A DNA stretch of 64,000 nucleotides from Acidobacteriota bacterium (GTDB lineage: Bacteria > Acidobacteriota > UBA6911 > RPQK01 > JAJDTT01), in NCBI GenBank assembly GCA_965217775.1, contig CBDCJH010000002.1, positions 1,024,001 to 1,088,000 of the forward strand. The letters are read 5' to 3'. Below the pieces are notes generated by a model that was given only the letters and a program-made list of their open reading frames with translations, was not told the DNA's origin and did no database searches. Both the position numbers and the translations under genes were made by a program. This document shows positions 16,383 to 38,933 of the stretch, piece after piece (positions within the stretch are counted from its first letter, which is position 1; each line of letters opens with the position of its first letter).

Positions 16383-16540
16383 CAGCCCGTGGCAAAAGTC
16401 GTCACGGCATTCGACCGTCCCTGCATCCCGGCGGACGGCGTTGCGACTCGGTCACATACTCCGGGTATGCTCCCTCATCGCGCCTTGTCCGGCGGGCGCA
16501 GGACCGGTCTCGGTGCGCGCGAGACTTTCACCACGGACTG
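16383..16540 (+). mobile_element. 158-bp palindromic MITE-like element, copy 1 (intergenic)
   Basis: Imperfect terminal inverted repeats CAGCCCGTGGCAAAAGTC / GACTTTCACCACGGACTG. Flanks GTAT and ATAT. Same length as the copies at 33607 and 38776. Confidence 0.88.
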
Positions 16541-16583
16541 ATATCAGTCGAGGGCGAAAATCGTCGCTCCTGCTCCGGACAAC

Positions 16584-18239
16584 TCATGGGACGGCTTTCT
16601 CCCGAACCGTCAGGATCTGATTGGCCCTGACGTTGCGGAGACTCTGGAGGATCCCCGAGGGCCAGTGGATTTCCACCAGTTCCGCGACGTCCGAGCCGCC
16701 CAGCCCCAGGTGAACCCTTGGGTCGTGACTGGAAAGGTAACTGGCCGCCCGTTGGACCTCACGGTGGAGCTCCCGGCCCCCGGCCCGGACCCGGAGCCGG
16801 GCCCCCAGTCCATTCCGATTGCTCTCGACCCCCTCCAGCCGGATCAGGAGCCAATTGTTCCGGTTATTCGCGTCGTTGCGCAACAGGTTCACGGGACCGC
16901 CGTTGTTGGTCACCACGATATCCACATCGCCGTCGTTGTCCAGGTCTCCGAAGGCGGCCCCGCGGCTCAGGTCCCGGACCTGAGACCAGGCACCGGCCTC
17001 GCTTGAGGACTCTCGGAAACTGCCCTCCCGATTCTCGTACAGTAGGTTCTCCTGGCGAAAAAAGACGTAATCGCGAAGTTGGTTAATGGTGGGATCGATG
17101 TGGCCGTTGGCGACGAACGCATCCAGGTCTCCGTCGTTGTCGTAGTCGAAGAGACGGGCGCCGAAACCCACCTTGACGTAGCTCTTCTCCAGGATTCCCG
17201 ACTGGTACGTGACCTCGTTGAAGTAACTTCCCGCCCTCCGGAAGAGAGCGTTCCCCTCGTCGGCGAAGTTGGTTACCAGGAGATCCATTTTCCCGTCGCC
17301 GTCGTAGTCGCCGAAGTCGACTCCCATGCCGGCCCGGGGATGACCGTTCTCGTCCAGAGCCACCCCTTGGTCGAAGCCTACCTCCTGGAAGGTGCCGTCC
17401 CGGTTGTTCCGGAAGAGGAAGTCGGCCACCGTGTCGTTGGCCACGAAGACATCCGGATAACCGTCCGGCTCCAGATCGGTGAAGGCGACGCCCAGGGCCT
17501 TGCCGCCCACCTGTCCTATGCCGCTGGATTCGCTCCGGTCCTGAAACTTGCCGTTTCCCAGATTCCGGAACAGCACGCTGGCGTCGGTCTCGAAGGTCGT
17601 GGGGTGGCAGTAGTTCCTACGGTCGGCCGTGTGGCAAGGAGTCTCCTTGCCGGGATCGTAGGCGACGTAGTTGCAGACGAACAGATCCAGGAGGCCGTCC
17701 CGGTCGTAGTCGAAGAATCCGGCGCTGGAGCCCCAGTGGCCCGAGTTTTCCACGCCCGCCCCCCGCGAAACGTCCCGGAAGCGGCCGTCTCCCTGGTTCT
17801 GGAACAGTTGGCTCCGGGGATACCCGGTGACGTAGAGGTCGGGATCGCCGTCGTTGTCGTAGTCACCGGCGGCCGCCCCCATCCCGTAGGTTCGAATCTG
17901 CAGACCCGAGTCGCGGGTCGCGTCCCGAAAGGTGCCGTCCCTCCGGTTCCGAAAGAGCCGGCTGCGGGATTCCTCCGTGTCGCTCGGAGGGATCTGGCTG
18001 CCGGCCACTACGAACAGGTCCAGGTAGCCGTCTCCGTCGAAATCCAGCAGGGCGGCGCCGGAACCCATGATCTCCAACAGGTGATAGCCGCCGCGAGCCC
18101 CGTTGTAGTGTTGATAGTCGATTCCGGCCACTCGTGTCCGGTCGTTGAACCGGGGAACACCCCTTTCCGTCTCCGTCGCTGGTAGTCCGTCTCCGGGCGC
18201 AACCAGGGAGAGGACCAGGAGACAGGGGCCGAATCTCAT
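16584..18239 (-). CDS. CRTAC1-like FG-GAP/ASPIC-UnbV protein (second paralog)
   Basis: DFDGDGYLDL, DYDNDGDPDL, SNRNGLGAR, VHLGLG, HWPSG. Start MRFGPCLLVLSL overlaps the symporter stop. Confidence 0.88.
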   Translation of the reverse strand: MRFGPCLLVLSLVAPGDGLPATETERGVPRFNDRTRVAGIDYQHYNGARGGYHLLEIMGSGAALLDFDGDGYLDLFVVAGSQIPPSDTEESRSRLFRNRRDGTFRDATRDSGLQIRTYGMGAAAGDYDNDGDPDLYVTGYPRSQLFQNQGDGRFRDVSRGAGVENSGHWGSSAGFFDYDRDGLLDLFVCNYVAYDPGKETPCHTADRRNYCHPTTFETDASVLFRNLGNGKFQDRSESSGIGQVGGKALGVAFTDLEPDGYPDVFVANDTVADFLFRNNRDGTFQEVGFDQGVALDENGHPRAGMGVDFGDYDGDGKMDLLVTNFADEGNALFRRAGSYFNEVTYQSGILEKSYVKVGFGARLFDYDNDGDLDAFVANGHIDPTINQLRDYVFFRQENLLYENREGSFRESSSEAGAWSQVRDLSRGAAFGDLDNDGDVDIVVTNNGGPVNLLRNDANNRNNWLLIRLEGVESNRNGLGARLRVRAGGRELHREVQRAASYLSSHDPRVHLGLGGSDVAELVEIHWPSGILQSLRNVRANQILTVREKAVP

Positions 18240-19762
18240 GTCCTGTTTCGATCCCCGAAAGTGAGGCCTTGAATCTGCTCGGACGAGGGCCGGCGGAAGA
18301 GAAAGCCGCCCAGTCCCGCCACGATCATGCCCAAGGTGAAGGAGAAGGGAATTCCCCACATCCAGGAGATGGCCTTCTCCATCCCGAACCATTCCTTGCT
18401 GAAGCTGACGAACAGGGAAACGGACGCCGCCAGGAAAAAGCCCATCAGAATCGCTTGTGGTCCGACCCTGCGAAACAGGATGCCCCCGAAGAAGAGGACG
18501 GCGATGGGGCCCACGAAGACGTCGTTGACCCGGCCGCTCAGGTCCAGGATGTTCCAGTCCGTCCGGCTCATGACCACGGCGATGATGACGGCCACTCCGA
18601 TCCCCACCACGCCGGCTCCGGCGGCCACGCCCTTATCCAGCAGGAGACCCCGCCGGGAGTCTTTCCGCCGATCGGCGAAATGGGTCGTCAGGACGCCCGA
18701 GATGGAGTTGATGGCCGAGCTGAGGCTGGACATGGCCGCCGACAGCAGGGCCGCCATGACCAAACCGGAAACTCCGGTGGGAAGCTGCTGGGCGATGAAG
18801 CGCGGCATCAGCCGGTCTCCCTCGGGAGCGATCTTGGCCTGGAACTCGGCCACCGGCAGGTTGGAGATGTGCGCATAGAAGGCGAACAGGGCCAGGCCGC
18901 AGATCGCCAGGGTGGTGTAGAGGACGACGTTGGACCAGGCATAGACCCAGACCGAGCGCCGCGCCGCCTTGATGGAAGGCGTCGAAAGATACCGCTGGAT
19001 CGCCACCTGGTCGCCGCCGTTGGCGCAGATGTTCCAGAACAGGATGTTGAGCATGATGCCGACGATGGTGATGCGGACCGTGGGATCGAAACTGAAGACC
19101 TGCATCTCGCCTCGCCCCGCTTCGGAGAAGGTCTCCCACCATCCCATGGGGCCCGTCCCCACCAGGTAGTAGACGTAGATGGGGATGGAGAGCGCGCCCG
19201 CCAGCAGGATCCAGAGCTGCAGGTTGTCGGTCCAGATGACGGTCCGAAAGCCACCCACGCTGGTGTAGAAGGTGGTGATGACCCCCAGCAGTATGATGGT
19301 GGTGAACAGGCCCAAGCCCGAAATCTCGGAGAAGGCGAAGCTGGCCGTGTAGATGATGATTCCGGACCAGATCAGGGTCCGGAAGACGAACAGGGTGGAG
19401 GCCAGGGTGCCGGTGCCCCGGTCGAATCTTCGGCCCACGTATTCGTAAGCACTGGTGATCTCGAGCCCCTTGATGGTGGGGATCAGGATCCGGTTCACGA
19501 TGGGGATCACCAGCGGCGCCACGATCAGGCCGAAACAGTAGGCGAATCCGTAACGAATTACCTCTCCCGGGACCGAGAGATAGCTGATGGTGGAGAGGAT
19601 GGTGGCCAGGACGCTGCCTCCGGCCAGAAACCAGAAGACCTTCCGGTCGCCCAGGAAGTACTCGTCACGGGACTTTTGGCGGCGCGAAAAATAGATCCCG
19701 ATGAGGGACAGGCTTCCCATGTAGGCGATGATGACCAGGATATCGATGGGGTTGAGATTCAT
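18236..19762 (-). CDS. Sodium:solute symporter (SSS family)
   Basis: EYFLGDR, SAYEYVGRRF, GGFRTVIWTD, DQVAIQRYL, AAMSSLSSAINS; many hydrophobic segments. Confidence 0.9.
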   Translation of the reverse strand: MNLNPIDILVIIAYMGSLSLIGIYFSRRQKSRDEYFLGDRKVFWFLAGGSVLATILSTISYLSVPGEVIRYGFAYCFGLIVAPLVIPIVNRILIPTIKGLEITSAYEYVGRRFDRGTGTLASTLFVFRTLIWSGIIIYTASFAFSEISGLGLFTTIILLGVITTFYTSVGGFRTVIWTDNLQLWILLAGALSIPIYVYYLVGTGPMGWWETFSEAGRGEMQVFSFDPTVRITIVGIMLNILFWNICANGGDQVAIQRYLSTPSIKAARRSVWVYAWSNVVLYTTLAICGLALFAFYAHISNLPVAEFQAKIAPEGDRLMPRFIAQQLPTGVSGLVMAALLSAAMSSLSSAINSISGVLTTHFADRRKDSRRGLLLDKGVAAGAGVVGIGVAVIIAVVMSRTDWNILDLSGRVNDVFVGPIAVLFFGGILFRRVGPQAILMGFFLAASVSLFVSFSKEWFGMEKAISWMWGIPFSFTLGMIVAGLGGFLFRRPSSEQIQGLTFGDRNRT

Positions 19763-19805
19763 TTAGCCTTACCTGATGAACGGATGCGTGATATTTGGGG
19801 GCAGA

Positions 19806-20720
19806 TCAGGTGAACTTCTTGAAGTATCCTTCACTCTGGATCACTTCCCGGGCCCACTCCTTCTCCGATTCTGAAACCGGCTTCAGCGGCGGCCGGGGCG
19901 CGCTGGACTGGAGGAAGCCAAAAGCTTCGATCAGCGCCTTGTCCACGGCCACGTCGGTGTAGCCGCGCCGGCTCAGCGGCCAGTAGAGCCGGTCCATGCA
20001 GCGGTCGAACTCCACCTGCATCTCCTCGGCCCGTTCCCAGTCCCGGGACCTGCAGGCCTGGTACCAGGCTTGGGCGAACCGGGGCGCCAGACTGGTCAGC
20101 AGGGAGAAGGCCCCATAGCCGCCCTGCTTCATGGAGGCGACCATCCAATCGTCCAGGCTGAGGTGCCGCAGAGGACTGGAGTGCTCCTGCAGTCCGTCCC
20201 AGAATTCTTGCGTCAACTGCCCCTGCTTCGTGCCCCAGAGGTTGGGCAGATCCAATAAGGCCGCGTATTCACAAGGCTCGAATTTCACCTCCGGGGCGTA
20301 GTTGGTGTTGTAGTGGACGATTCCCAGGGAAGGGCAGGCCTGTGCGATGGCGCGAAGAGCACGGGCGCGCTCCTCGGCGCTCAGGGGAATGAAGTGGGGC
20401 GGGATGGCCAGGACGGCGTCGGCGCCGGCCTCGGCCAGCCACTGGACGGTCTCCAGGATCCCCCCCAGGCGCACCGAGGTCGCCCCCACCACCTTCAGGG
20501 TCTCCGGTCCCGCCTCCTCGACGAAGATCCGCACGGCTCGCCGGTACTCGTCCGGAGAGACATTGAAGAGCTCACCGCTGGTCCCCAACAGGTACATGGC
20601 CTCCAGGCCCTCGTTCCGGTAGGCCCGAATATTGTTCCGGAGGGCGGTCTCGTCCATGCTCCAGTCGGAGCTGAAGCACATGGGAATGTTGGCGATCACA
20701 CCCTGCAATCTTTCTCTCAT
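19806..20720 (-). CDS. DHDPS/N-acetylneuraminate lyase-family aldolase
   Basis: LLGTSGE, HYN, WGTKQG (Schiff-base Lys), PRPPL. Confidence 0.85.
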   Translation of the reverse strand: MRERLQGVIANIPMCFSSDWSMDETALRNNIRAYRNEGLEAMYLLGTSGELFNVSPDEYRRAVRIFVEEAGPETLKVVGATSVRLGGILETVQWLAEAGADAVLAIPPHFIPLSAEERARALRAIAQACPSLGIVHYNTNYAPEVKFEPCEYAALLDLPNLWGTKQGQLTQEFWDGLQEHSSPLRHLSLDDWMVASMKQGGYGAFSLLTSLAPRFAQAWYQACRSRDWERAEEMQVEFDRCMDRLYWPLSRRGYTDVAVDKALIEAFGFLQSSAPRPPLKPVSESEKEWAREVIQSEGYFKKFT

Positions 20721-22870
20721 GGTGAACCGGTTTCCTTTCCGAGTTCCGCTTCGAGTTGCTCCATCTGCTGGATCAGGAATTCGTCGTCCGGCTTCAACTT
20801 CAGAGCGTTTCGGATGGCAACGGCCGCTTCCCGCAATCGCCCCAGAGAAGCGAGAGACAGGCCCAAATTGACTTGGGCCGCCAGCAGGCCCGGCTCGATC
20901 TCCACCGCCCGGCGAAAGGCCCGGATCGCCTCTTCCACCTTTCCCGTGGCCGCCAACGTCGCCCCCAGGTTGGTGTGGGCGGTGGCCATTTCGGGAGCCA
21001 GCGCAATGGCTCGGCGGAAAGAAGCGATGGCCGGTCCGGCCGCCCTCGCCGCGTATTGTTGAAGACCCAGATTATAGTGAGCGCTGGCGAAATTGGGCTC
21101 AAGACGGATAGCTTCCTGGAAAGCCTTGGTGGCTTGCCTTCCCAGATTCTGCCGGGCCAGGGCCAGGCCCAGGTTGTTGTAGGCATCGGGAAGATCCCGG
21201 TCCAGGCGTAGGGCGGATTGCAAGACCCGTGCGGCCTCCGCCGCCCGACCCGATTCCAACAAGGCATAGCCCAACTGCGTCAGGCTGACCGTGTCGTCCG
21301 GCTTCACCGCGAGGGTGTTTCGAAGCACTGTCAGACCCTGATCCAGCGATCCTTGCCTCGACAGCGCCAGCCACTGGTTGCGCAGGGCCGGCAGGTAGTC
21401 TCGTTGTCTGCGAAGGGCATCCTGGTGGAGGCGGACGGCGTCCTTGAACCTGCCCTCCGCCAAATAGGCGTCCCCCAGCTCGAAGTAAAATCCCGCCTGC
21501 AGAGGGCGTTGGGCCTTCAGGGCTTTTTCCAGCCTGGGAATTCCTGGTTTCAGGTTGGCGTTCTGCTTGACTTGAGCCACCGCTTCGTAGAGTTTGACCT
21601 GACCTGATTCGGCGGGACCCGGCGGATAGTAGCGGATGACCTCTCCCAGGATCACCTCTTGGCGGGATTCGGCCAGCGGCGCCAGCAGGTCGCCCCCGGG
21701 CGGACGGCGGACGATCCGGTGATCGGTCATGACGGCGTGGACCACGTCCTGAGTCCTGCGCCGGGGCATGTGGCAGACCAGGCAGTCCTCGTCCGCCGGG
21801 TGCTCTCCAGAGGCCACCAGTGGTGCGACCTGTTCGGCGTGGCAACGATTGCAGGCATCCCGGGACGCACTTCTCGACTCGGGCGCCGACGCCGGCCGGT
21901 GGGGATCGTGGCAGGTCACGCAGGTGAACCGACCTTCGCTTTCCTGAAAGCAGGACGACCTGAGGAACCGGTATCCGGCGTGATTGACCTCGAACCGCTC
22001 TTCCGCCTCTTCCTGATCCGAAGCGTCGAAGTGAAGGATGTAGTCCGCCAGCGGTTCTCCCGGCCGGTAGGAGAAGACGCCCCGGCCGTAGTTCCGGATC
22101 ATGGCCGGGAGTCCCTTGGTGGTGGACTCCAGGTGGCACTGGAGACACACTTCCAACTGTCTTTGGGGATCCAACCTGGCCGGATTCACGATGGAATTGC
22201 GGATGGCTTCTTTGGAGGCACGGCTGCGAACCGCCTTCAGATGGGCGCCGCCCGGACCATGGCAGCGCTGGCAGTCGATGCCGTTGGGGAGTTCTTCCGG
22301 AAAGAGAGGATCCTTGCCGTTCGCGTCGTCTCCCGGCGGCAGTTGCGGATAGGCGTTGTGGCAGAACATGCAGGAGTAGTCGATCCGCCGGCTGAACCCC
22401 TTGTGATCGGGGCGGTCGTAACCGGGGCTCATACCCCAGTGCCCGCCGTCTTCCGCGTACCAGGCCAGGGGAAGCTGGTAAAGGGCTCCCCAGGGAGTCC
22501 GGTGGAGATAGGTCCGGCCCCGGTTCCCGGAACCCAGGACGTAATGGATCTCTTTCTCCACCCGGTTGATGGTCTTCTCCTTCTCGTTCAACTGGTGCCG
22601 GCTCAAGTAGTAGGAGCCGTTCCTGCGGGCGACCGTGTAGTGCCGGTCGGAGGCCGGGTGGTAGTACGTTGCCTCCTGCTGTTCTTCTCCCAGCGTATTG
22701 GTGGGATCGGGGAGAGAGAAGGCTCGGCCCATCCCCGTGGTCTGGTGAGAGTCGTAGATCTCCTGGTGGCACGCACTGCAGTCTTCACTCGAACCTCCCT
22801 GGGAATAGAGCGGGAGGGAGAGGAGGACCAAGTGGGAGCACCAAACGGCGAAGCAGTGGCGAACATCCAT
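20717..22870 (-). CDS. Multiheme cytochrome c with C-terminal TPR domain
   Basis: Seven CxxCH motifs (CSACH, CMFCH, CQRCH, CLQCH, CVTCH, CNRCH, CLVCH), a signal peptide and C-terminal TPRs. Confidence 0.88.
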   Translation of the reverse strand: MDVRHCFAVWCSHLVLLSLPLYSQGGSSEDCSACHQEIYDSHQTTGMGRAFSLPDPTNTLGEEQQEATYYHPASDRHYTVARRNGSYYLSRHQLNEKEKTINRVEKEIHYVLGSGNRGRTYLHRTPWGALYQLPLAWYAEDGGHWGMSPGYDRPDHKGFSRRIDYSCMFCHNAYPQLPPGDDANGKDPLFPEELPNGIDCQRCHGPGGAHLKAVRSRASKEAIRNSIVNPARLDPQRQLEVCLQCHLESTTKGLPAMIRNYGRGVFSYRPGEPLADYILHFDASDQEEAEERFEVNHAGYRFLRSSCFQESEGRFTCVTCHDPHRPASAPESRSASRDACNRCHAEQVAPLVASGEHPADEDCLVCHMPRRRTQDVVHAVMTDHRIVRRPPGGDLLAPLAESRQEVILGEVIRYYPPGPAESGQVKLYEAVAQVKQNANLKPGIPRLEKALKAQRPLQAGFYFELGDAYLAEGRFKDAVRLHQDALRRQRDYLPALRNQWLALSRQGSLDQGLTVLRNTLAVKPDDTVSLTQLGYALLESGRAAEAARVLQSALRLDRDLPDAYNNLGLALARQNLGRQATKAFQEAIRLEPNFASAHYNLGLQQYAARAAGPAIASFRRAIALAPEMATAHTNLGATLAATGKVEEAIRAFRRAVEIEPGLLAAQVNLGLSLASLGRLREAAVAIRNALKLKPDDEFLIQQMEQLEAELGKETGSP

Positions 22871-22897
22871 GGATGATGTCGAGTCCGCCCCGGCGGC

Positions 22898-24232
22898 CTA
22901 GAGTTCTGACAGCACTTCGTCCAGGGCTTCCAGCGTGCGGTCGATGTCCGAATCGGTGTGGGCCGCCGAGATGGAGCATTGCTTGGTCGCCACCGGGAAG
23001 AAGTAGATTCCGCGCTCGATCAGGGCGCGCCGCATAACCAAATCCTTGCCGAAATCATGGTTTCCGGCCAGATCGTGCCAGTCCACCGGCTCGTGATCCA
23101 TCAGGTAGAGGCAGAAGGCGGATCCCTGGCGGGCCACCGTCCCCGTGATTCCCCGGGAGCTCAGGATCGACTCGATCCCGGCCTGGCACCGTTGTCCCAG
23201 CCGGTCGATGTGCCGGTAGACGTCGCCGTCGCCTTCCAGGAGGCGCTCGATGGTGGCGATGGCGGCGCTCACCGAGACGGGATGGCCATTGTAGGTCCCG
23301 GAGACGATGGGCCGCTTGGAAGGATCGGGATGGGCGAAATGTTCCAGAAGCTCCCTCTTTCCGCCCAACGCCGAGAAGGGATAGCCGTTGGCCACCGCCT
23401 TGGCGAAGTAGACCAGGTCGGGCTGGACGCCGCTGACCTCGCTGTACCCTCCAACCGAGTAACGGAACCCGGTCTTGACCTCGTCGAAGATGAGCACGAA
23501 ACCGTACTCGTCGGCCAGCTCCCGGAGCCCTTCCAGGTAGCCGGGGACCGGTTTCATGATGCCGATGTTCTGCAGGATGGGCTCGGTCACCAGGGCGGCC
23601 ACATCGTGGCGCTCGCAGACGTAGCGGACCGAATCCAGGTCGTTGAAGTTGATCACGTGCACCAGTTGGGCATGAGCGTCAGGGACCCCGGGTCCCAGCG
23701 GAATGTAGCGGTACTCGCCGGGGGAGACTCGGGGACCGATCTGGTCCAGGGGCGTCAGCACATTGCAGGCCACGTCGTTGTGGGAGCCGTTGAAGCCTCC
23801 CTGCGTCACGATGACATGATCGCGGCCGGTGGCGGCGCGGGCCAGTCGGACGGAGGCCATGGAGGCCTCGGTGCCGGTGTTGAGGAACTCCACCATCTCC
23901 ACCGCCGGGACGTGGGTGCAGAGCATCTCGGCCAAGCGGCCCTCCAACTCGTTGGTACCGCTTCCATACAGGCTCGCTCCGCCGTCGATGGCTTTGCGGA
24001 CCGCTTCGTTGACGTAGGGGTCGTTGTGGCCCAGGACGATGGGAGCGAAGGCCGCGTGGTAGTCCAGATAGCGGTTGCCATCCACGTCCCAGATGTAGGC
24101 TCCCCGGCCCCGGGCAAAGGCCAGGTCGGGCTCCGCCTTGCGGACGATGGAGACCACGCCGCCGGGGATGTAGCGTTCGTTGAAATCCAGCACCTGAGCG
24201 GACTTGGAGCGAATGGCATCGAGGACAGTCAT
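22898..24232 (-). CDS. Class III PLP aminotransferase (GSA-aminomutase-like)
   Basis: WDVDGNRYLDY, NTGTEA, FDEVKTGFR, FAKAVANG (PLP Lys), GTYNGHP. Confidence 0.88.
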   Translation of the reverse strand: MTVLDAIRSKSAQVLDFNERYIPGGVVSIVRKAEPDLAFARGRGAYIWDVDGNRYLDYHAAFAPIVLGHNDPYVNEAVRKAIDGGASLYGSGTNELEGRLAEMLCTHVPAVEMVEFLNTGTEASMASVRLARAATGRDHVIVTQGGFNGSHNDVACNVLTPLDQIGPRVSPGEYRYIPLGPGVPDAHAQLVHVINFNDLDSVRYVCERHDVAALVTEPILQNIGIMKPVPGYLEGLRELADEYGFVLIFDEVKTGFRYSVGGYSEVSGVQPDLVYFAKAVANGYPFSALGGKRELLEHFAHPDPSKRPIVSGTYNGHPVSVSAAIATIERLLEGDGDVYRHIDRLGQRCQAGIESILSSRGITGTVARQGSAFCLYLMDHEPVDWHDLAGNHDFGKDLVMRRALIERGIYFFPVATKQCSISAAHTDSDIDRTLEALDEVLSEL

Positions 24233-24354
24233 GACGTTACCTTGATTCGTTTCCCTTCGATTGTTAGTTTCCAGACACCTTGTTACTTGTGCATGCTGCG
24301 GGCCGGTCTGTCAAGTGATCCCGCCCGGCGGCGGTGAAGGAGTCGAGCGGCAGG

Positions 24355-25125
24355 ATGTCCCTGGAATCGGCGGTGGCCGTCGTCACGGGAGCGGCGGAGG
24401 GCATGGGCCGGGCCATTGCCTGGAAGCTCGGTAGCGAGGGCGCCCGGGTCGCCGTCTGTGACCGCAACCGGGAGGGTCTCGAAGCCGCTGCCGGACAAAT
24501 GGCGGCGAGCGGGTTCCGGGTCCTGGCCCGGGTCTGCGACGTCAGCGACAACCGGCAGGTGGAAGGGTTCGTCTCCGCAGTCACCGGGGAATGGGGCGGG
24601 ATCCGGATCCTGGTGAACAACGCCGGGATCTCGAAACGGAATCCGATTCTGGAGCCGGGCGACGAGACCTGGCATGAGGTGCTGGCCACCAATCTGACCG
24701 GCGTCTATTACTGCACCCACCGGGCGCTTCCCCATTTCCAGGACGGCGGCCGCATCGTCCACATCTCCTCCATCTCGGGGAAGGTGGGCTCGGCCGAGTA
24801 CAGTGCCTATTGCGCTTCCAAGCATGGGGTAATCGGTCTGACCCGGGCCCTGGCCCTGGAGTTGGCTCCCCGCGGGATCACGGTCAACGCCGTCTGTCCC
24901 GGGTGGGTGCGGACATCCATGGCCCGCAGGGACCTCCAGGAGACCGCCCGCCTCGAGGGCCTGAGCCTTGAAGCCATGCGTCGACGCATTTTGGACGGGA
25001 TCCCCCTGGAAACCATGATCCGTCCCGAGGAGGTGGCCGGTCTGGTGCACTTCCTGGTGTCACCCTCGGGAGCGGCCATCACGGGACAGGCCGTAGACAT
25101 CTCGGCGGGGGAGGTGATGTCTTGA
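24355..25125 (+). CDS. Short-chain dehydrogenase/reductase
   Basis: VTGAAEGMG, NNAG, YCASKHG, VNAVCPG. Confidence 0.9.
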   Translation: MSLESAVAVVTGAAEGMGRAIAWKLGSEGARVAVCDRNREGLEAAAGQMAASGFRVLARVCDVSDNRQVEGFVSAVTGEWGGIRILVNNAGISKRNPILEPGDETWHEVLATNLTGVYYCTHRALPHFQDGGRIVHISSISGKVGSAEYSAYCASKHGVIGLTRALALELAPRGITVNAVCPGWVRTSMARRDLQETARLEGLSLEAMRRRILDGIPLETMIRPEEVAGLVHFLVSPSGAAITGQAVDISAGEVMS

Positions 25126-25130
25126 GACGA

Positions 25131-25198
25131 GGAGGGGGGACATCCCTGTCCCCCTCTTCAACACCGCCCCGGAACCGGGGGTTGCAAACCCCCGCTCC
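25131..25198. repeat. REP doublet, copy B
   Basis: GGAGGGGGGACATCCCTGTCCCCCTC...CGGGGGTTGCAAACCCCCGCTCC; paralogous to 6082-6148. Confidence 0.75.
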
Positions 25199-25257
25199 AA
25201 CACGCCCTTTTTCTGCGTGGATTGCGCCGGCCCGCGGCCGGCGGAGGACTTCCAAAA

Positions 25258-28812: not shown

Positions 28813-28898
28813 ATTCACAATCCACGTGGGAAAGTGTATTCAAGCAGACGGAACGAGTTGCTTCTGCGACGCTCATCCTGTCGATGATCTACATGGGC

Positions 28899-29166: not shown

Positions 29167-29223
29167 TGCGCCCAGCGACCGTACAGCGCGTCTCCACTCC
29201 CCAAGTGCCATCTCTCGGTTCAC
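29167..29223 (-). pseudogene. Truncated HEPN-like gene start
   Basis: GTGA overlap with the MNT stop gives (M)NREMALGEWRRAVRSLGA, then an abrupt switch to unrelated sequence. Confidence 0.5.
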
Positions 29224-29555: not shown

Positions 29556-29619
29556 GGGTTCATACTTCGATGTCGGATGCCTGCGAAGTGTCGTTGCCGA
29601 AGATGTCGATCTTTGCCAT

Positions 29620-31071: not shown

Positions 31072-31348
31072 TCCGATTGAGGTTCTCGTTCGGAGCGCAC
31101 CTCGGCGATGCTGAGCCAGCCGCGGTCAAACGTAAATGTACGGGCCGTTCCGGCCGGGTCCTGGATCCGAACGATTCGGGGAATCTCCTCGCCGGCGCGC
31201 TGCCCGTTCCAATCATTTCGCTTCGCCATCGCATCCTCGGCGTTCTGCAGCAACTCGTAGATGGAATGGGTTCGATTATCATAGCGATTCGCGAGCAGTG
31301 TCGGGCCGACTCACCAATTTCGGCGCCGTAACGAGGCTTGTTTTCCAT
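31068..31348 (-). pseudogene. Internally deleted sacsin-like HATPase gene remnant
   Basis: Frameshifted reading gives LLANRYDNRTHSIYELLQNAEDA (GHKL N-box) joined almost directly to IVRIQDPAGTARTFTFDRGWL, which looks like a protein C-terminus. Confidence 0.55.
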
Positions 31349-31537
31349 GGTAATGCGGTTTCATATTCGACTCGTCCCGATTCACTACGTCGTCGGGGTC
31401 ATCCCATAACGTCGGCTATCGGGAGGGTGCAAATAACAGGCGAGCCAATGCCGACCTCGAAGTTCGCACGCTCAGGGGTTTAGTGAAAGGCGAGTCTACC
31501 TTACAATTTGCAGATCGAATTCAATGGAGTTGGAGCC

Positions 31538-31774
31538 ATGGCCATCACGCTCACAGTGACTCTCAAGGGGCAGATCACCTTGCGCAAAGAGGTACTCAAT
31601 CATCTCGGGGCGCGTCCCGGCGACAAACTCGAGGTCGACCTGCTGAAGGCCGGACGGATTCAACTGAGGCCGAAGCGTGGAACCTCGCCGGCAAGCGTCT
31701 TCGGTATGCTTGCAAGACCGGGAACACCACGTCTTTCCATCGAAGAACTCAACCAGGCCGCTGCTTCCGGATAG
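31538..31774 (+). CDS. AbrB/MazE-type antitoxin (VapB-like)
   Basis: LTVTLKGQITLRKEVLNHLGARPGDKLEV. The TAG stop looks like a mutated TGG: readthrough gives W-A-D-E-E-stop with a GTGA overlap on the toxin start. Confidence 0.85.
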   Translation: MAITLTVTLKGQITLRKEVLNHLGARPGDKLEVDLLKAGRIQLRPKRGTSPASVFGMLARPGTPRLSIEELNQAAASG

Positions 31775-31785
31775 GCGGACGAGGA

Positions 31786-32205
31786 GTGAGGATTAAAGCC
31801 GATCCGAATGTGCTGCTGGGTGCCATCCTACAGGATGACCAGGAACAGGCCTCAGCGGCACGGGCGGTGCTCCTGCGCGCGACGGTCATTACCGTTCCCG
31901 TGCCGGTCTTCTGCGAGTTTGTTTGGGTGTTGAAGCACGGCTACGGTCGGAAGGTCGATGAGATAGCCGTAGCGATCGAGGCCATATGTGAAATCGACGC
32001 CGTGGTCACTGATATACCGGCGGTCGAGGCAGGTTTGACCCTGCTGCGCGCAGGCGGACACTTCGCCGACGGAGTCATCGCCCATCAAGGCGAAGGATTC
32101 GGCGGAAGCGTGTTCGCCAGTTTCGATCGCAACGCCATCGCTCTCTTGAAGAGGAACGGGTCGGCGGCAGCCGAAGTCTCTGAGTTGATCGGCACCGGGC
32201 GGTAA
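31786..32205 (+). CDS. vapC: PIN-domain VapC-family toxin
   Basis: ADPNVLL (variant of DTNVL), CEFVWVL, HFADGVIA, ASFDR; directly downstream of the AbrB-type gene. Confidence 0.8.
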   Translation: MRIKADPNVLLGAILQDDQEQASAARAVLLRATVITVPVPVFCEFVWVLKHGYGRKVDEIAVAIEAICEIDAVVTDIPAVEAGLTLLRAGGHFADGVIAHQGEGFGGSVFASFDRNAIALLKRNGSAAAEVSELIGTGR

Positions 32206-32285
32206 AATCCTTTACGAGAAGATCCTGCTCCAAGTGGATGAGACTCTGACGCCGAAGGCGTTACGGGTTCCGCTGGTTATGGCAT

Positions 32286-32417
32286 CTAAAATGTTCTGTT
32301 CATGAGCTGTCGCCGGAGTTCCATGAACTCAGACTCAAGGCACCCAAATACCTTATCGACATAATCGTCCAAATTTGCGCGGACTTCGTCGAAGTTGACT
32401 TCAAAAGGAAACGACAT
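32286..32417 (-). pseudogene. Short ORF overlapping the methyltransferase 3' end; probable truncated partner gene (possibly the endonuclease)
   Basis: MSFPFEVNFDEVRANLDDYVDKVFGCLESEFM... stops after 43 aa; its start overlaps the MTase end by 17 nt. Confidence 0.4.
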
Positions 32418-34755
32418 CACGTGTCTCTTCGTCGGACTGTTTCTTTCGTAACAACGGTCCCGGCGATATTGGTACAGGATCGGCAGCGGCCACTAGTTCC
32501 AAGATGTGGACAGGATCTCCAAGGCTGGATACTGTGTCGCCAAATGCCGCGATCTTGTTAGCTATCGGCTGACCCTTGTCCCAAAGCGGGCGGAGCTTCC
32601 AGACGGCCATACGTGTCAGATGGCCGAAGACGATACAACGGGTGTCGCCTCGGGTCGGCTTTCTGCCCGCCTGCTCCAAGTCCGCCAAATCCACCGCCAC
32701 GATTGCTGCAAGCTGTTCGGGCGTGTCGAATATCCAGCGGCGCGGCACTGCACCCGACGCCCGGCAGACGAACACGGTATCGATGATCGATGAACCCGTG
32801 CCGTGGATGTGGATGGAGCCCCCCATCTCGGCGGGACAGGGCAGTGTGGCAGAAACGACCAGGTCGGCGTCCAGGATGGCCACTCCGACGGCGTGATACG
32901 TCTCCAGCTTGTTGTGGTGGTAGGTGAACGCGAGCGGTGCGCCGGGCTTCAAGGCTTGGGCCATTCGCGAATAGGCGGCGGAGAGTCCTTCTGTGAAATG
33001 ATCCAATCCATGATTCCGGGTTACATTGCCATTAAGTTCGTCCTGAGATCGTGTGAGCGCGCGCTCAAAGCCATCCGCCTCGTTTCCCACCAAGCGTCGA
33101 AGCCAGACATAACAGAAGTCCATTAGCTCGCTATACTGCACGTTGCCGTAATACGGAGGGTCTGTGAACACGGCGTCGAGGCTCTCCGGCGAGACATCGA
33201 TAGAGGTGGCGCTGGCACAACGGATGGCCACTTTGCGCCGTTGCCCGCCCCGCTTCTCGCCGATCCATTCCCCTTTGATGGGAACCCGGACATTACGGGT
33301 CCCTCTGCGCCTGACTTCGAACGGCGCGCTGCAATACAGTTTCGCCTTGGCATATTTGTGGACAATGTTGGACCACCCGCCGGAGCCCACGTTGCGGCCG
33401 GCTCCGTTGTTTATGCGCAGGAGATTGGATTCGCACTGTACCAACCCCACCGGAAAGCCGTGCACGGAGAAGATGTCCAAAGATTTGAGCGCCGTAATGT
33501 CGTAGCGGCAGAGCATGTTCTGGTAGCGCAACAGGTCGGAGAGATTGGTGGCGATGGCATGCCGTATTCGCTGGTCCTTGACCTGGGAAATCAGCCGGCA
33601 ACTTAACAGTCCGTGGTGAAAGTCCCGCGAGCACCGAGACCGTTCCTGCGCCCGCCGGACAAGGCGCGATTCGGGTGCATACCGGGAGTATGTGCCCGAA
33701 TCGCAACGCCGTCCGCCGGGATGCAGGGACAGTCGAATGCCGTGATGACTTTTGCCACGGGCTGTTAACTCCAACCCTAGAAGTTGGCGTGGATTGAAGA
33801 GGTCTTTAAAGCGGGTGTACCCGCAGCGATGCAGACGATCGGTCTCGTCGCCGGCGAGGATCTCCTGGTTCGGAACGAAGCTGGGAGTGAGCTGTTCCCA
33901 TCGCTGTGAGGCAGCCTCCATGCGCAATGCATCTTCTTTGTCCGGTTTCTTGAAGAAACGGCCCTTGTGTTTCGCCTTTCGCGTGGGGTTGAAATATTCC
34001 ATCGCGAACATGCGGTGCCGCAGAGGACGTTGCGCCTCTCCCGGGTAGGCGTTGGAATGCCCGCAATGGGGGCATTCGCAGCGTCCTCTGCGCGCGGGGC
34101 CGGCTTGGCGAAGTTCGGTCCCACAGCTCGAGCAACCTCCCGAATCCCTGTAGTCCTCGACTTGGTTCAGATCACCGCAGGTCGGGCACACCAGGACATT
34201 CATCGGGTGACGCCGGTTCCTGGCGACCAGGTAGCCCGGAAAGAGGTCGAATGCTTGCCCGCAACGCACGCAATCGAGCACCTTGACCCAGAGGAAGGAC
34301 TTCACGGGTACGTTGGAATCCCCGTAGAGTGGGCAGGAGGTTCGGTAATATCGATCGATTTCCGTACGCAGAGCCGCAAGTAGCCTCTGAACTGCCTGCC
34401 GGTAAGCCGACAGGTCGACGGATTCAAGCTCTTCGCGGACAATCCACGCAGACATCGGATTGATGTCGAAACCCTGCACTTCGCATCCAACTCGATTGGC
34501 CTCAATGAGCGGGGTTCCACCGCCCATGAACGGGTCTGCGATCCGGATCCCCGAAAAGTCGTTTCTCCGGAAAAAAGTCTTTTCAAGACGGTCACGACCG
34601 AACTCGGCCAAAATCAGGCCACGAAACAGGGTGCCGGGACGGCGGGCGAACCACTTATGGACACCGATGATGGGACGGTAGTTCTGCTGTATCTGTTTTT
34701 CCTTGAATGCCATTCGGGCGACCAAGGAAACATCGAATCTGTGCTCGATACTCAT
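32401..34755 (-). CDS. Amino-DNA methyltransferase with Zn ribbons (DUF1156-like), carrying an in-frame MITE insertion
   Basis: HKWFARRP, motif I DPFMGGGTP, several CxxC pairs, motif IV TDPPYY, FTYHH. A 54-aa insert lies between LLGLEL and SCRLIS. Confidence 0.88.
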   Translation of the reverse strand: MSIEHRFDVSLVARMAFKEKQIQQNYRPIIGVHKWFARRPGTLFRGLILAEFGRDRLEKTFFRRNDFSGIRIADPFMGGGTPLIEANRVGCEVQGFDINPMSAWIVREELESVDLSAYRQAVQRLLAALRTEIDRYYRTSCPLYGDSNVPVKSFLWVKVLDCVRCGQAFDLFPGYLVARNRRHPMNVLVCPTCGDLNQVEDYRDSGGCSSCGTELRQAGPARRGRCECPHCGHSNAYPGEAQRPLRHRMFAMEYFNPTRKAKHKGRFFKKPDKEDALRMEAASQRWEQLTPSFVPNQEILAGDETDRLHRCGYTRFKDLFNPRQLLGLELTARGKSHHGIRLSLHPGGRRCDSGTYSRYAPESRLVRRAQERSRCSRDFHHGLLSCRLISQVKDQRIRHAIATNLSDLLRYQNMLCRYDITALKSLDIFSVHGFPVGLVQCESNLLRINNGAGRNVGSGGWSNIVHKYAKAKLYCSAPFEVRRRGTRNVRVPIKGEWIGEKRGGQRRKVAIRCASATSIDVSPESLDAVFTDPPYYGNVQYSELMDFCYVWLRRLVGNEADGFERALTRSQDELNGNVTRNHGLDHFTEGLSAAYSRMAQALKPGAPLAFTYHHNKLETYHAVGVAILDADLVVSATLPCPAEMGGSIHIHGTGSSIIDTVFVCRASGAVPRRWIFDTPEQLAAIVAVDLADLEQAGRKPTRGDTRCIVFGHLTRMAVWKLRPLWDKGQPIANKIAAFGDTVSSLGDPVHILELVAAADPVPISPGPLLRKKQSDEETRDVVSF
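33607..33764 (-). mobile_element. 158-bp MITE-like element, copy 2, with TTAA target duplication, in frame in the MTase
   Basis: TTAA at 33603-33606 and 33765-33768; ends CAGTCCGTGGTGAAAGTC and GACTTTTGCCACGGGCTG on the + strand. Confidence 0.93.
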
Positions 34756-35134
34756 CGCCTGTCCTGACTGATCTCTACTTTAGAGAGAGCGGCTCCGGGT
34801 CCCTGCCGCTTTGGGCCTCTTCGTACGGAACACCGTCGCGAGTTTGGCCTCCAGACAATCTCCGAATTCTACGCTGGAACCATGACAGAACCTCAGATGT
34901 CCGGACTCCCATCCCCCTCCCACGAAACGCCGCCAAAAATGCGGCGTCGTCTGGCCAATAGTCGAGCATGTTCGTTGTACCGGGAGGAGCCTAGGAAAAA
35001 GAGCGACGAGAGGAATGCACCCGTGCCGCTTCAGGGCGGCGGAGGGAACGAACCCCGAGCCAGACCGCCGACGTTGATCGGAATGTGTGTCGATGCGATC
35101 ATTTGCCGAGTATGGCAAGGAGAACAGCGAGACC

Positions 35135-35506
35135 ATGATCAAGGGCGTGCATACCATGTTCTACTCGTCGGAGCCGGAAGCGTTGCGCGAATTCCTCCGC
35201 GACACGCTGGGCTTCGACTCCTACACCGATGTCGGCGGCGGCTGGCTCATCTTCGACCTGCCGGAGGCGGACATGGGCGTGCATCCCACCGACCCCTCGG
35301 GGAAGCACGGCAGTCCGGCCGGGACCCACGACATTTCCTTCTACTGTGACGACATCCAGGCCACGGTTTCGGAACTGAAGGGCCGGGGTGTGGTGTTCGA
35401 CGGCGAAGTGACAGACCAGGGCTTCGGACTCGTGACGTATTTTCGGATGCCGGGCAACGTGCGGGTACAGCTCTGTGAGCCTTATTACCGGAAGGGCGTC
35501 CGCTAA
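35135..35506 (+). CDS. VOC/glyoxalase-family protein
   Basis: MIKGVHTMFYS..FLRDTLGF..DVGGGWLIF..HDISFYCDDI..DQGFG; AAGGAG upstream. Confidence 0.85.
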   Translation: MIKGVHTMFYSSEPEALREFLRDTLGFDSYTDVGGGWLIFDLPEADMGVHPTDPSGKHGSPAGTHDISFYCDDIQATVSELKGRGVVFDGEVTDQGFGLVTYFRMPGNVRVQLCEPYYRKGVR

Positions 35507-35673
35507 GCCGGCGGCATTGACAGTTCCAGCGTCCGGTTGCCCCATGATCCCGGCTTGCAGGAGGCCGCGTTTGTTGTACCGAAAAGTGCAGCGGGTATAA
35601 TGGATCGCATCGACCGTTTGTCCAGGTCAGGATCTCCGAGGTGCTTATGCCAAGAACCTTCGTAAATTCTCCC

Positions 35674-37326
35674 ATGGATGTCAGGTTCGTTCTGCTTTCC
35701 CTGTTTCTGGTCCTGCTCCCGGTTCAGGCCAAAGAGAAGAAGCGGGACGACCGGGCCGTTCTCCAGGAAGAGCAGCAGGACTACTACAAGAAATGGCTCA
35801 AGGAGGACGTCGTCTACATCATCACCGATGAAGAGCTGGACGTGTTCGACGACCTTAGCACCATGGAGGAGAAGGAGCAGTTCATCGAGCAGTTCTGGCG
35901 CCGGCGCGACCCGGACCTGAGGACCGCCATCAACGAGTACAAGGAAGAACACTACCGGCGGATCGCCTACGCCAACGAGCGCTTTCCCAGCGGAAAGCCG
36001 GGCTGGATGACCGATCGGGGCCGCATCTACATCATTCATGGACCGCCGGATCAGATCACGTCCCGCGCCGGTGGGGGCTTCTATGCCCGCCCCATGCACG
36101 AGGGGGGCGGCGTGACCTCCACCTATCCCTTCGAAACCTGGCGCTACCGCTGGATCGAGGGTCTGGGGCAGGAAATCGAATTGGAGTTCGTGGACGCCTC
36201 TTTGAGCGGAGAGTACCGGCTGAGCCTGGACCCTGCCGAAAAGGACGCGCTGCTCTATCTTCCCGGTGGCGGCCTGACCCTGGCCGAGGAGATGGGTCTG
36301 GCCCAGAAGAAGGATCGGCCTTTCTTCTCCCCGGGCATGCGGGACAGCTTCCCCTACATGGCCACCCGGGCTCAGGACGACGTGTTCGAGCGCTACGAGC
36401 GTTACGTGATGATCAAGGCGCCCAAGAAGATCAAGTACGGCGATCTGAAGGGGCTGGTGGACGTCTCGGTCGGCTACGAGTCACTCCCTTTCCGAGTCCG
36501 GCGCGACTACTTCAAGCTGGGCGCCGATCGGGTGGTGGTTCCGGTGACGGTCGAACTCGACAACGGCGAACTATCGTTCAAGCTGGAAAAAAACCAGAGC
36601 TATGTGGCCAAGGTGGGTGTCTACGGCGCGGTCACCAGCATGACCAGGCAGGTGGTGGACGAGTTCGACTACGACCTGGTGCAGACCTACGTTCCGGAGG
36701 CGTACGCCGCCCAGGCTCAAAAACAGGGCCGGTCCACTTACCAGAAGATCCTGGTCCTGGAACGGAAGCTGCGTTACCGCCTGGACCTGGTGGTCAAGGA
36801 TCTGACCAGCGGCAAGGTGGGAGTCAGCCGGACCGCTATCGTTCCGCCGGCCTTCGGCGGTGAAAAGCTGAAAGCCAGCTCCATGATCCTCACCGATCTG
36901 GTTCGGCAGATGGAGGACGTTCCTCAGGAAGAGATGTTCATCCTGGGAAACGTGAAGGTGCGTCCGGTGCTGGATCACAGGTTCGCCGCCACGTCGCCTC
37001 TGGCCGTCTATCTTCAGGTCTATAATGTGAGCGCCGACCAGGCCACGATGGTCCCTTCCATTCAGGCCAGCTACCGGATTTCCAAGGGTAAGGATGTCCT
37101 GATGGAAGAAGTGGACGAGACGGGCGAGTCGATCCAGTACTTCTCGGGCCAGCGTATGGTCCTGATAAAGAGCCTTCCCATCCAGCAACTGAAGCCGGGC
37201 CGGTACCATCTGAACGTGCAAGTCCACGACAAGATCAGCGATCAGGAGGTCAGCGCCGGCCAGGTATTCCAGGTGCGCGCACCGTCTGCCGCCGATGGTC
37301 TGAACAAGACCGCGTCTCTCCAGTAG
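35674..37326 (+). CDS. GWxTD domain-containing protein
   Basis: WLKEDVVYII, FIEQFWRRRDP, EHYRRIAYANERF..PGWMTDRGRIYI; signal peptide. Confidence 0.9.
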   Translation: MDVRFVLLSLFLVLLPVQAKEKKRDDRAVLQEEQQDYYKKWLKEDVVYIITDEELDVFDDLSTMEEKEQFIEQFWRRRDPDLRTAINEYKEEHYRRIAYANERFPSGKPGWMTDRGRIYIIHGPPDQITSRAGGGFYARPMHEGGGVTSTYPFETWRYRWIEGLGQEIELEFVDASLSGEYRLSLDPAEKDALLYLPGGGLTLAEEMGLAQKKDRPFFSPGMRDSFPYMATRAQDDVFERYERYVMIKAPKKIKYGDLKGLVDVSVGYESLPFRVRRDYFKLGADRVVVPVTVELDNGELSFKLEKNQSYVAKVGVYGAVTSMTRQVVDEFDYDLVQTYVPEAYAAQAQKQGRSTYQKILVLERKLRYRLDLVVKDLTSGKVGVSRTAIVPPAFGGEKLKASSMILTDLVRQMEDVPQEEMFILGNVKVRPVLDHRFAATSPLAVYLQVYNVSADQATMVPSIQASYRISKGKDVLMEEVDETGESIQYFSGQRMVLIKSLPIQQLKPGRYHLNVQVHDKISDQEVSAGQVFQVRAPSAADGLNKTASLQ

Positions 37327-37349
37327 TGCGATAGCTCCGGAGGTTCTCC

Positions 37350-38741
37350 CTGACCGCTACCCCGTCCCCTCCCCGGAGCCGGGTCCGCTACTCCGTCCTG
37401 GTCTGGCTCTGCGTGGCAGCCACCATCGCCTACATCCAGCGCAACTACCTCTCGGTGGCCGAGAGCACGATCCGGATCGACCTGGGCCTGAGCAAGGAGC
37501 AGATGGGATGGATCTTGAGCGGCTTCTTCTGGGTCTACGCCGGATTCCAGGTGCCTGCCGGCTGGCTCGGGGATCGCTGGGGCGCGCGGCGGACCCTCCC
37601 CTTCTACTCGGTGGTCTGGTCGGTTTGCACCGTGCTGTCGGGGGTGGCGGGAACGGCATTGGCTCTCTGGCTGGCGGGACCGGGGGGAGCGATCCTGGCG
37701 GCCTACCTCTGGTTGCTGATCCCCCGCATGTTCTCCGGAGCCGCCCAGGCGGGTCTCTTCCCCTGTTCCGCGGTCGTGTTGTCGAGATGGATGCCGGTGA
37801 ACCGGTTGGCCGTTTCGAGCGGCTCTCTCGGAGCCGGGATGCAGATCGGAGCCATCCTCGTCGCCTTTCTGACCGGGATTCTTCTGGAATGGGGTGTCGG
37901 CTGGCGTTGGCTCTTTGTCCTCTACGCGCTTCCGGGGGGGATCTGGGCGCTGCTGTTCTATCGCTGGTTTCGTGACCGCCCTCGGGACCACGCCTCCGTG
38001 ACGCCGGAAGAACTGGATCTTCTGCTGGCCGAGTCCAAAGCCACCCGGGAATCGAAAGGGGCAGCGGACGAAGGATCGGGCCGCGGCCGGCCCGTCAAGA
38101 CACCCTGGAAGCATCTGGCCGCGAGTCCGGCCATGTGGGCCATCTGCGGACAGCAGTTCTTCCGGGCCGCCGGGTATATCTTCTATGCCAGTTGGTTTCC
38201 CACCTATCTGCAGGAAGCGCGAGGCGTCTCGGTGGCCGAGTCGGGCCTGCTGACGAGTGTTCCCCTGATTGCGATTCTATTCGGAGGACCGCTGGGTGGT
38301 ATCGTCTCCGATTGGATCTACTCCAGAAGCGGGAATGTGGCAATGGCCCGGAAAGGGATGGCCTTGGGCTGCCTCCTGGTCGGAGTCCTGCTCACGGTGG
38401 CTGGATGTCTGGTTCACAATCCGCTGCTTGCCGTCTCTCTCATTGGGATCGGTGGCTTCTTTGGCGCTTTCGTCAGCCCTATCGTCAATTCCCTGACCAT
38501 CGCCATGGGCGGAAACAACGTGGCGACGATCTTCGGCACCATGAACATGGCGGGGAATCTGGGAGCGGCGGCGTTTCCCGTCGTGGTTCCGTTGCTTCTG
38601 GGGCCGTCGGGTGACAACTGGACCCCGGTCTTGTGGGTGTTCTGCGGCGTGTACGTGGTGGCGGCTCTGTTCTGGCTGATGCTCAAACCGCAGGGCACGT
38701 TCGTCGGGCAGTCGCTTCTTTCTCGGGTCCCCTCATCGTAG
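37350..38741 (+). CDS. MFS transporter (anion:cation symporter-like); probable CTG start
   Basis: RVRYSVL..IAYIQR, GWLGDRWGARR, WRWLF, GTMNMAGNLG. The frame extends upstream of the 37413 GTG to a CTG preceded by GGAGGT. Confidence 0.85.
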   Translation: MTATPSPPRSRVRYSVLVWLCVAATIAYIQRNYLSVAESTIRIDLGLSKEQMGWILSGFFWVYAGFQVPAGWLGDRWGARRTLPFYSVVWSVCTVLSGVAGTALALWLAGPGGAILAAYLWLLIPRMFSGAAQAGLFPCSAVVLSRWMPVNRLAVSSGSLGAGMQIGAILVAFLTGILLEWGVGWRWLFVLYALPGGIWALLFYRWFRDRPRDHASVTPEELDLLLAESKATRESKGAADEGSGRGRPVKTPWKHLAASPAMWAICGQQFFRAAGYIFYASWFPTYLQEARGVSVAESGLLTSVPLIAILFGGPLGGIVSDWIYSRSGNVAMARKGMALGCLLVGVLLTVAGCLVHNPLLAVSLIGIGGFFGAFVSPIVNSLTIAMGGNNVATIFGTMNMAGNLGAAAFPVVVPLLLGPSGDNWTPVLWVFCGVYVVAALFWLMLKPQGTFVGQSLLSRVPSS

Positions 38742-38775
38742 TAGACTGGGCGGCAACCATGCGGGTCAACCTAAA

Positions 38776-38933
38776 CAGCCCGTGGCAAAAGTCGTCACGG
38801 CATTCGACCGTCCCTGCATCCCGGCGGACTGCGTTGCTATCGGCTCACATACTCCCGGTATGCTCCTTCATCGCGCCTTGTCCGGCGGGCGCAGGAACGG
38901 TCTCGGTGCTCGCGAGACTCTTGCCACGGACTG
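38776..38933 (+). mobile_element. 158-bp MITE-like element, copy 3
   Basis: CAGCCCGTGGCAAAAGTC...GACTCTTGCCACGGACTG; same length as the other copies; flanks TAAA/TCAT show no clear duplication. Confidence 0.88.

Follow-up and report, generated by a model that had tools for sequence, protein, structure and literature searches.

A 158-bp MITE of an uncultured Acidobacteriota genus, its IS5/IS1182-type partner and its conserved internal rod

A mobile hairpin element and its partner insertion sequence

The stretch of DNA analysed here (the window; 64,000 nucleotides, C2:1024001-1088000) comes from an Acidobacteriota genome (G000) of two contigs, 6.43 Mb and 62.3% G+C, and holds three copies of a 158-bp hairpin element that we identify as a MITE (miniature inverted-repeat transposable element). 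Copy 1 (16383-16540, plus strand) is intergenic, placed between divergent open reading frames (ORFs) at 13202-16345 (minus) and 16665-17006 (plus), and is flanked by GTAT and ATAT. Copy 2 (33607-33764, minus strand) has a perfect TTAA duplication at 33603-33606 and 33765-33768 and sits in frame within a gene for an adenine DNA methylase, in the same orientation as the gene. Copy 3 (38776-38933, plus strand) is an older copy with a degenerate duplication and starts 35 bp past the stop of the ORF at 37413-38741. An earlier note on this DNA had placed the three copies at these positions, and they align there without gaps across 158 bp; the roughly ten substitutions and no indels that it had counted between copies 1 and 2 proved to be 11 substitutions, or 93.0% identity. 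The terminal inverted repeats (TIRs), CAGCCCGTGGCAAAAGTC / GACTTTCACCACGGACTG, are 18 bp long and complementary at 15 of 18 positions, and the inner palindrome boxes and CATAC/GTATG apex are present as described. A single long hairpin is predicted on both strands (z = -8.5 and -11.3), with none of 200 shuffles matching it. The open frames of the 158-bp element encode no recognisable protein and its substitutions are without codon periodicity.

BLASTN with copy 1 as the query returned 276 high-scoring segment pairs across the genome, 213 of them end-to-end copies, confirming that the repeat family is real. Among these, 149 are 158 bp long, 34 are 159 bp, 20 are 160 bp and ten others fall within 143-162 bp; 111 lie on the plus strand and 102 on the minus strand. 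Part of the family is very young, since 46 of the 149 copies of 158 bp are mutually identical. The 4-bp target duplication that had been proposed from the window is perfect in 154 of the 213 copies, most commonly as TTAA (27), CTAG (19), TCAA (13), ATAT (13) or CTAC (12). Position 2 of the duplication is T in 133 of the 154 and position 3 is A in 140, with a flanking C at -1 in 87 and a flanking G at +1 in 72. The insertion target is the palindrome C-YTAR-G.

The window holds no transposase, in agreement with the earlier note, and the nearest related insertion sequence (IS) copies start at C2:316892 and C2:2325898. The partner IS was located by searching for orphan ends, pairs of which lie ~1475 bp apart. 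It is 1475 bp long, has 16-20-bp ends in common with the MITE and also makes a 4-bp duplication, so that the IS with matching ends that had been sought is indeed found. Two mutually identical copies, C2:310455-311929 and C2:316892-318366, have a reading frame broken near the C-terminus; a third, C2:2325898-2327373, is 84% identical to this pair and retains an intact 452-aa transposase ORF. One truncated copy and fragments are additionally present. The partner IS is flanked by CTAG or TCAA duplications, and its identity with the MITE ends stops after 16-20 bp. The best family for the transposase is NF033551 (IS1182) at 158-171 bits, with IS5 models second and the Pfam domain DUF772. IS5 elements duplicate 4 bp at YTAR. 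Relatives of the transposase (63-97% identical) occur in metagenome-assembled genomes (MAGs) titled Acidobacteriota, Vicinamibacterales or Candidatus Binatia, and several of the relatives' IS copies in related MAGs bear an identical 16-bp end. Four MITE-ended composites of 1674 or 1746 bp were also considered as the parent IS and rejected, their interior being an IS110-family element inserted into the MITE.

The element is a MITE: it is shorter than 1 kb and has no transposase gene, and it has TIRs, a fixed duplication, dispersed polymorphic copies and an IS with matching ends. Its anatomy points to mobilisation in trans by the partner IS. As a MITE the element is ordinary, resembling prokaryotic IS5/IS1182-linked MITEs in being non-coding and 158 bp long, in having the TIRs of a resident IS and a 4-bp YTAR-type duplication, and in its hundreds of copies, whose presence varies from strain to strain.

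The MITE is abundant and has been recently active. The family is present in all eight same-genus genomes and was not found in any of the six sister-genus genomes searched. The copy-3 site is occupied in one of the eight (G006), and the MITE is missing from the other seven, as seen by alignment in G003 and G007 and judged from BLAST coordinates alone in the remaining five. In G007 the site is a clean gap. In G003 (L107, C1:3256975-3257175 of that genome) a 14-bp remnant, CAGCCCACGGACTC, joins both tips of the element and is the footprint left by a deletion across the palindrome. The site orthologous to copy 1 is occupied in G007. For copy 2, an empty methylase allele in the protein database is 99% identical and, at 730 aa, exactly 54 residues shorter. 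In three of the four public runs placed on the methylase gene, contigs pass straight from 33602 to 33765 and so lack exactly 162 bp; two of these runs, X1 and X6, have no recorded library kind, and the third, X12, is an RNA library. In runs X1 and X6 the uninserted allele has a depth about equal to that of the gene.

Variants of the element and of its arrangement were also encountered. Short forms of ~97 bp without positions 56-106, which hold the apex, lie at C2:985933-986029, 3579131-3579227, 4889634-4889730 and 5007959-5008055. A comparable apex-less form exists in another genome (G275, L120:2229-2318), and the coexistence of short and long forms recalls that known for other MITEs. Head-to-tail pairs that share one 4-bp repeat occur at C2:2174457-2174777, 483865-484186, 4957274-4957593 and 238077-238261, arranged as though a new copy had entered the duplicated tetramer of an older copy. 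On the small contig C1 (144 kb), the 12-bp flanks of the copies at 6207, 25191 and 51754 match those at C2:5297251, 5279310 and 5243584. Given these shared flanks, C1 may be a diverged second copy or strain variant of C2:5.24-5.30 Mb and not a plasmid. The contamination estimate of the assembly is 7.5%.

The internal rod across Acidobacteriota

The interior of the hairpin is found far outside the genus. Of 301 genomes sampled from the phylum, 10 contain a 27-nt apex pattern (≤2 mismatches), and none contains the reversed control pattern. In the distant genomes the carriers are 157-158-bp elements with CTAG-type duplications and shared internal motifs, but with different ends. An end-free covariance model of the 120-nt rod matches 23 of 151 sampled Acidobacteriota genomes, representing 18 of 105 genera. 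Both tallies count an unpublished genome (G016), in which a further repeat family has the apex core in common. Three Vicinamibacterales MAGs have between 110 and 149 covariance-model matches each, and at the one MITE locus checked per MAG the ends of the MITE match those of a local IS1182-like IS. Altogether the rod is flanked by at least eight classes of ends. For one of these, TGTCTCGTACCCGAAGTC, a partner IS was searched for in genome G280, where TGTCTCGTACCCGAAGTC was found only on four MITE copies. Spread beyond the phylum was considered and set aside: a Candidatus Binatia MAG gave three weak matches, the best at 39.7 bits, too weak to argue for several phyla.

Covariation, which the earlier note had proposed as a check, is pronounced. 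Across 17 diverse members, 27 of 33 rod pairs change on both sides with pairing kept; column shuffles give 11.7, and none of 500 attains the observed value. Pairing in this alignment is 91.8%, and sliding the partners by 1-3 columns reduces it to 33-48%. An independent MAFFT alignment, made from 25 sequences, gives 95% pairing over 29 internal pairs versus 84.5% when shuffled, and double changes occur in 11 of the 29, a number reached by 2 of 500 shuffles. For several rod pairs, three or four pair types are seen.

The rod does not derive from the insertion sequences. Its arm motif is missing at 75 of 79 loci with full-length IS copies, which means that the rod is no relic of the IS. Of the four exceptions, L032 was inspected and its arm motif belongs to a neighbouring MITE; the other three were judged by position only. 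The combination of a conserved internal rod with interchangeable ends is the unusual feature of the superfamily. It reverses the usual MITE pattern, in that the interior is conserved across the phylum and not derived from the IS, whereas the ends differ. The superfamily makes testable what non-autonomous elements need besides transposase-binding ends, and in some Acidobacteriota it reaches hundreds of copies per genome.

We consider it very probable that the element is a MITE of an uncultured Acidobacteriota genus with an IS5/IS1182-type partner, that its 54-codon property is incidental, and that selection on the rod acts at the element level. In this model, a DDE transposase encoded by the IS5/IS1182-type IS elsewhere in the genome would recognise the 16-20-bp MITE TIRs, as the ends and footprints suggest, and would insert the element at C-YTAR-G with duplication of the central 4 bp. 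The long hairpin would not be junk: its rod would be a cis-requirement for propagation, probably as a folded single strand or a cruciform, without the appearance of a host function at each locus. Within the genome, paired positions have 0.71 substitutions per site and unpaired positions 0.72, with the majority of changes disrupting a pair. Positions that do not vary across the superfamily have 0.64 per site, versus 0.85 at variable positions (p = 0.10). A cis-acting role in mobility is favoured because the rod is conserved between families while the individual copies decay near-neutrally.

Several considerations weigh against this model. Single copies may be under weak selection, given the small shortfall of substitutions at conserved positions, and neither the orientation data nor the wobble data separate roles of the rod as RNA, as single-stranded DNA or as double-stranded DNA bound by protein. 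The transposase scores below the curated NCBIfam cut-off for NF033551 (171 versus 270 bits), for which reason we file it as IS5/IS1182-type and not as a certified IS1182 member. Its link to the MITE is drawn from the shared ends and the common footprint. The shuffle controls overstate significance, because the sequences are related and one alignment was fitted to the model. Finally, the gene caller behind the gene contexts described below is crude, with the methylase the sole case verified by homology.

A bolder reading, which we hold tentatively and think somewhat improbable, treats the rod as a portable selected single-strand fold, of RNA or single-stranded DNA, that would have spread through the Acidobacteriota by repeatedly acquiring local IS5/IS1182-type terminal repeats. 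Its conserved loops would bind a conserved factor on which its propagation depends, and its near-invariant apex would act as a dedicated landing pad for IS110-family elements. If this were true, the rod would be a structured 'parasite of parasites' and the landing-pad IS110-family recombinase would be RNA-guided.

We regard it as unlikely that the rod is a functional structured RNA riding on the MITE, whether as an mRNA stabiliser, a processing site or a small RNA, and whether it benefits the host or regulates the transposase. Such a role has precedents in bcr1 and ERIC (PMC3184786), and it would accommodate the strong compensatory variation across families, the conserved internal loops and a tandem U.G on one strand only, present in 13 and 14 of 17 sequences. 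MITE sequence also occurs in contigs of two metatranscriptome libraries, although contigs from RNA libraries cannot reveal transcription, strand or ends. Individual copies, however, are without visible constraint, and their orientation with respect to the adjoining genes is unbiased (70:66 at 3' ends, 56:50 at 5' ends). Across families 39 wobble cells fall on the top strand versus 9 on the bottom, 27 of the 39 coming from two conserved positions; once these U.G positions and one terminal pair are excluded, the counts by strand are 6 versus 8, with no bias. The consensus itself has 5 wobble pairs on the top strand versus 7 on the bottom. A scan around copy 1 found no promoter- or terminator-like site. 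Rfam, which the earlier note had suggested consulting to exclude a known RNA, gave no match in the window at the gathering score and only a 16.9-bit chance match for copy 1 (E = 3), and a search with six diverse members returned nothing even at E up to 10.

A role at the level of double-stranded DNA seems less likely still. Here the rod would be no fold but two long sub-terminal inverted repeats with double-stranded sites for the transposase or a host protein, and the two arms would be kept alike by gene conversion or fold-back copying. Many transposons do need both arms recognised alike, inverted repeats can evolve in concert, and the lack of strand and orientation bias fits a DNA-level feature. 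The full-length IS copies, however, have only the outer 16-20 bp in common with the MITE and no arm motif, so that their transposase does not need it. Moreover, arm-to-arm copying would erase conserved asymmetries such as the tandem T.G opposite GCATTCG/CTCGGTGC and the three internal loops, whose sequence is conserved.

Gene ends, reading frames and the methylase insertion

Gene context was determined with a self-trained caller using ORFs and codon usage, which called 4363 ORFs covering 83% of the genome. Of the 213 copies, 135 overlap no called ORF, and many apparent intragenic cases are upstream ORF extensions through the open strand of the element. With the element and one repeat removed, 13 of 213 sites are coding-like on both sides, compared with 922 of 2128 (43%) random sites with the same tetramer, a ~7-fold depletion of copies from coding DNA. 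At 34 of the 213 copies the duplicated tetramer contains the stop codon of an adjacent gene that scores well. Because the tetramer on the stop codon is duplicated, the stop codon is restored, and insertion is directed towards the ends of genes by the target preference. TA-containing tetramers are scarce within genes of this 62% G+C genome and common at stop codons, and under our model this distribution together with purifying selection would leave copies mostly intergenic and strikingly often exactly on a stop codon. The family offers a clean natural case of a stop-codon-aimed transposon, which helps explain how hundreds of copies are tolerated. For annotation, the elements yield false N-terminal ORF extensions and 54-residue insertions in predicted proteins.

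According to the earlier note, a length of 3n-4 combined with a 4-bp duplication and the absence of stops would let the element land in genes without a frameshift. The mobility, the duplication and the preservation of frame stand: 158 + 4 = 162 bp, or 54 codons, and copy 2 adds exactly 54 residues. Selection for these traits does not. The strand beginning CAGCCCGTGG has no stop in any frame in all three window copies, as had been seen. The other strand, said to contain several stops, has them in three frames in copies 1 and 3 but in only one frame in copy 2, and in the consensus its frame -1 is also open. As a special property, however, the open strand did not hold up, being reproduced by 12% of dinucleotide-preserving shuffles and 14% of random genomic 158-mers, though by only 2.2% of mononucleotide shuffles. 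In the 149 copies of 158 bp, nine distinct substitutions create a stop on the open strand, and the mutation spectrum predicts 8.6. Among 22 sequences from sister families in other genomes, only 5 have a fully open strand, and some of those families' elements are 157 bp long.

Of the intragenic copies, seven lie in the orientation of the gene and six opposite, the random orientation that the note had taken as speaking against adaptation. Of two further outcomes that it had placed on that side, a mostly disruptive effect was not observed (4 of the 13 intragenic copies are disruptive), and variable length was for the most part not seen, the copies other than the 149 being confined to 143-162 bp. 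Nine of the 13 are read through, and a simulation in which real copies were placed at coding sites with the same tetramers expects 67% (p = 1.0). In this simulation the ORF was kept open in 94% of cases in gene orientation (1778 of 1883), 37% in the opposite orientation and 67% overall. The four copies that are not read through comprise two with stops in the opposite orientation, one with a junction stop and one of 159 bp. The reading-frame neutrality is real but incidental to this one family, and not selected; the open strand and the 162-bp increment would let an occasional intragenic copy, such as that in the window methylase, be read through.

In-frame MITE insertions are known, best from Rickettsia palindromic elements (RPE; PMC10969869; PMC3184786). 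The likeness to RPE lies in a palindromic repeat of ~150 bp that may occupy a gene in frame and contribute a peptide to its product. Roughly every second RPE copy is in an ORF (Ogata et al. 2000, via PMC10969869), whereas the present family has 13 of 213 there with no bias in orientation or frame, and it differs also by its inverted-repeat ends, its duplications and its partner IS. We consider it very unlikely that the element is adapted as RPE are, its length, duplication and stop-free strand having been selected for harmless insertion into genes. The 162 bp added by each insertion, the open ORF in most simulated gene-orientation insertions and the nine copies read through, one of them verified against homologs, all agree with such adaptation. 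The depletion from coding sites, the even orientation, the chance level of read-through and the lack of selective maintenance or wider conservation of the open strand speak against it, as does the fate of the one verified host gene.

That gene is the DUF1156-type adenine DNA methylase ORF at 32401-34755 (minus strand, 784 aa), in which copy 2 forms a 54-residue insertion after residue 329. Its orthologs were searched for with the C-terminal region, as the full protein retrieved little besides translated MITE copies. The 54 inserted columns are empty in all 107 other full-length homologs. The inserted and uninserted alleles differ by eight substitutions, and two of these, W311C and G447R, alter residues shared by all 107 homologs. 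These changes suggest that the function has been lost and that the gene is decaying under relaxed constraint after the insertion, and is not carrying a tolerated passenger.

IS110-family insertions at the apex and known systems

Mobilisation by a Y1 (HUH) transposase, as for hairpins of the REP/REPIN or IS200/IS605 type, would suit the long hairpin, high copy number and mostly intergenic placement but is so improbable that we reject it on anatomy, because HUH-moved elements are not known to make terminal inverted repeats or target duplications, whereas this element has clear TIRs and 4-bp target duplications and a DDE-type IS with matching ends is present.

A 1511-bp IS110-family element inserts specifically at the rod apex and occupies one identical position there, GGTATGCT|CCCTCATCG, in four MITE copies. 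The resulting composites lie at C2:1656568-1658241 and 3134809-3136482 (1674 bp) and at 5760147-5761892 and 6039542-6041287 (1746 bp). The encoded IS110-family protein has 317 aa and scores 217 bits on NF033542. A fifth apex insertion is found in the G007 ortholog of window copy 1 (L105, G007:C43). Separately, a 72-bp tandem duplication of the IS110 left end (C2:5761732-5761803 and 6041127-6041198) makes two of the composites 1746 instead of 1674 bp long. The leader of the IS110-family element contains AGGGAGCA, which is reverse-complementary to the TGCT|CCCT that spans the insertion point. It may be a bridge-RNA guide but should be taken as a lead only, since by a rough estimate an 8-mer match between these two stretches is expected by chance in about one case in three. 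The leader fold is unremarkable (z = -2.9). As a natural IS110-family element with a defined, high-copy and conserved target, the system would be usable for studies of bridge-RNA target choice.

Other IS also use repeats as targets; IS1397, ISKpn1 and IS621 are examples that target REP. REP/BIME elements are widespread as dedicated IS targets (PMC3184786), and the IS110-family element is alike in sitting at a single fixed position but differs in that its target is the apex of a MITE. The bcr1 element of the Bacillus cereus group is ~155 bp long, duplicates 5 bp of its target, folds into two hairpins in a cruciform-like manner and is transcribed (PMC3184786). It is likewise a mobile ~155-bp repeat with a short target duplication and a predicted fold kept by compensatory changes, but the present MITE has a 4-bp duplication, a single rod, many end classes and an IS partner. 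ERIC elements (~127 bp, no known partner IS) act on mRNA decay in an orientation-dependent manner (PMC3184786). They too are imperfect-palindrome MITEs with inverted-repeat ends and a TA-containing target, and differ from the present family in that the latter has no orientation bias.

No match to a described MITE or non-coding RNA, which the earlier note had raised as a possible outcome, was found in Rfam or in the accessible part of the MITE literature on IS1182, Acidobacteria, in-frame palindromic elements and bcr1. The family may be listed in the supplementary tables of a MITE survey across 183,232 genomes (PMC11602168).

At the left side of copy 1, the adjoining 700 bp match several paralogous or orthologous stretches in each genome with 83-91% identity, one of them C2:1474379-1475102, and on this basis the large gene at 13202-16345 (minus) is a member of a multi-copy family.

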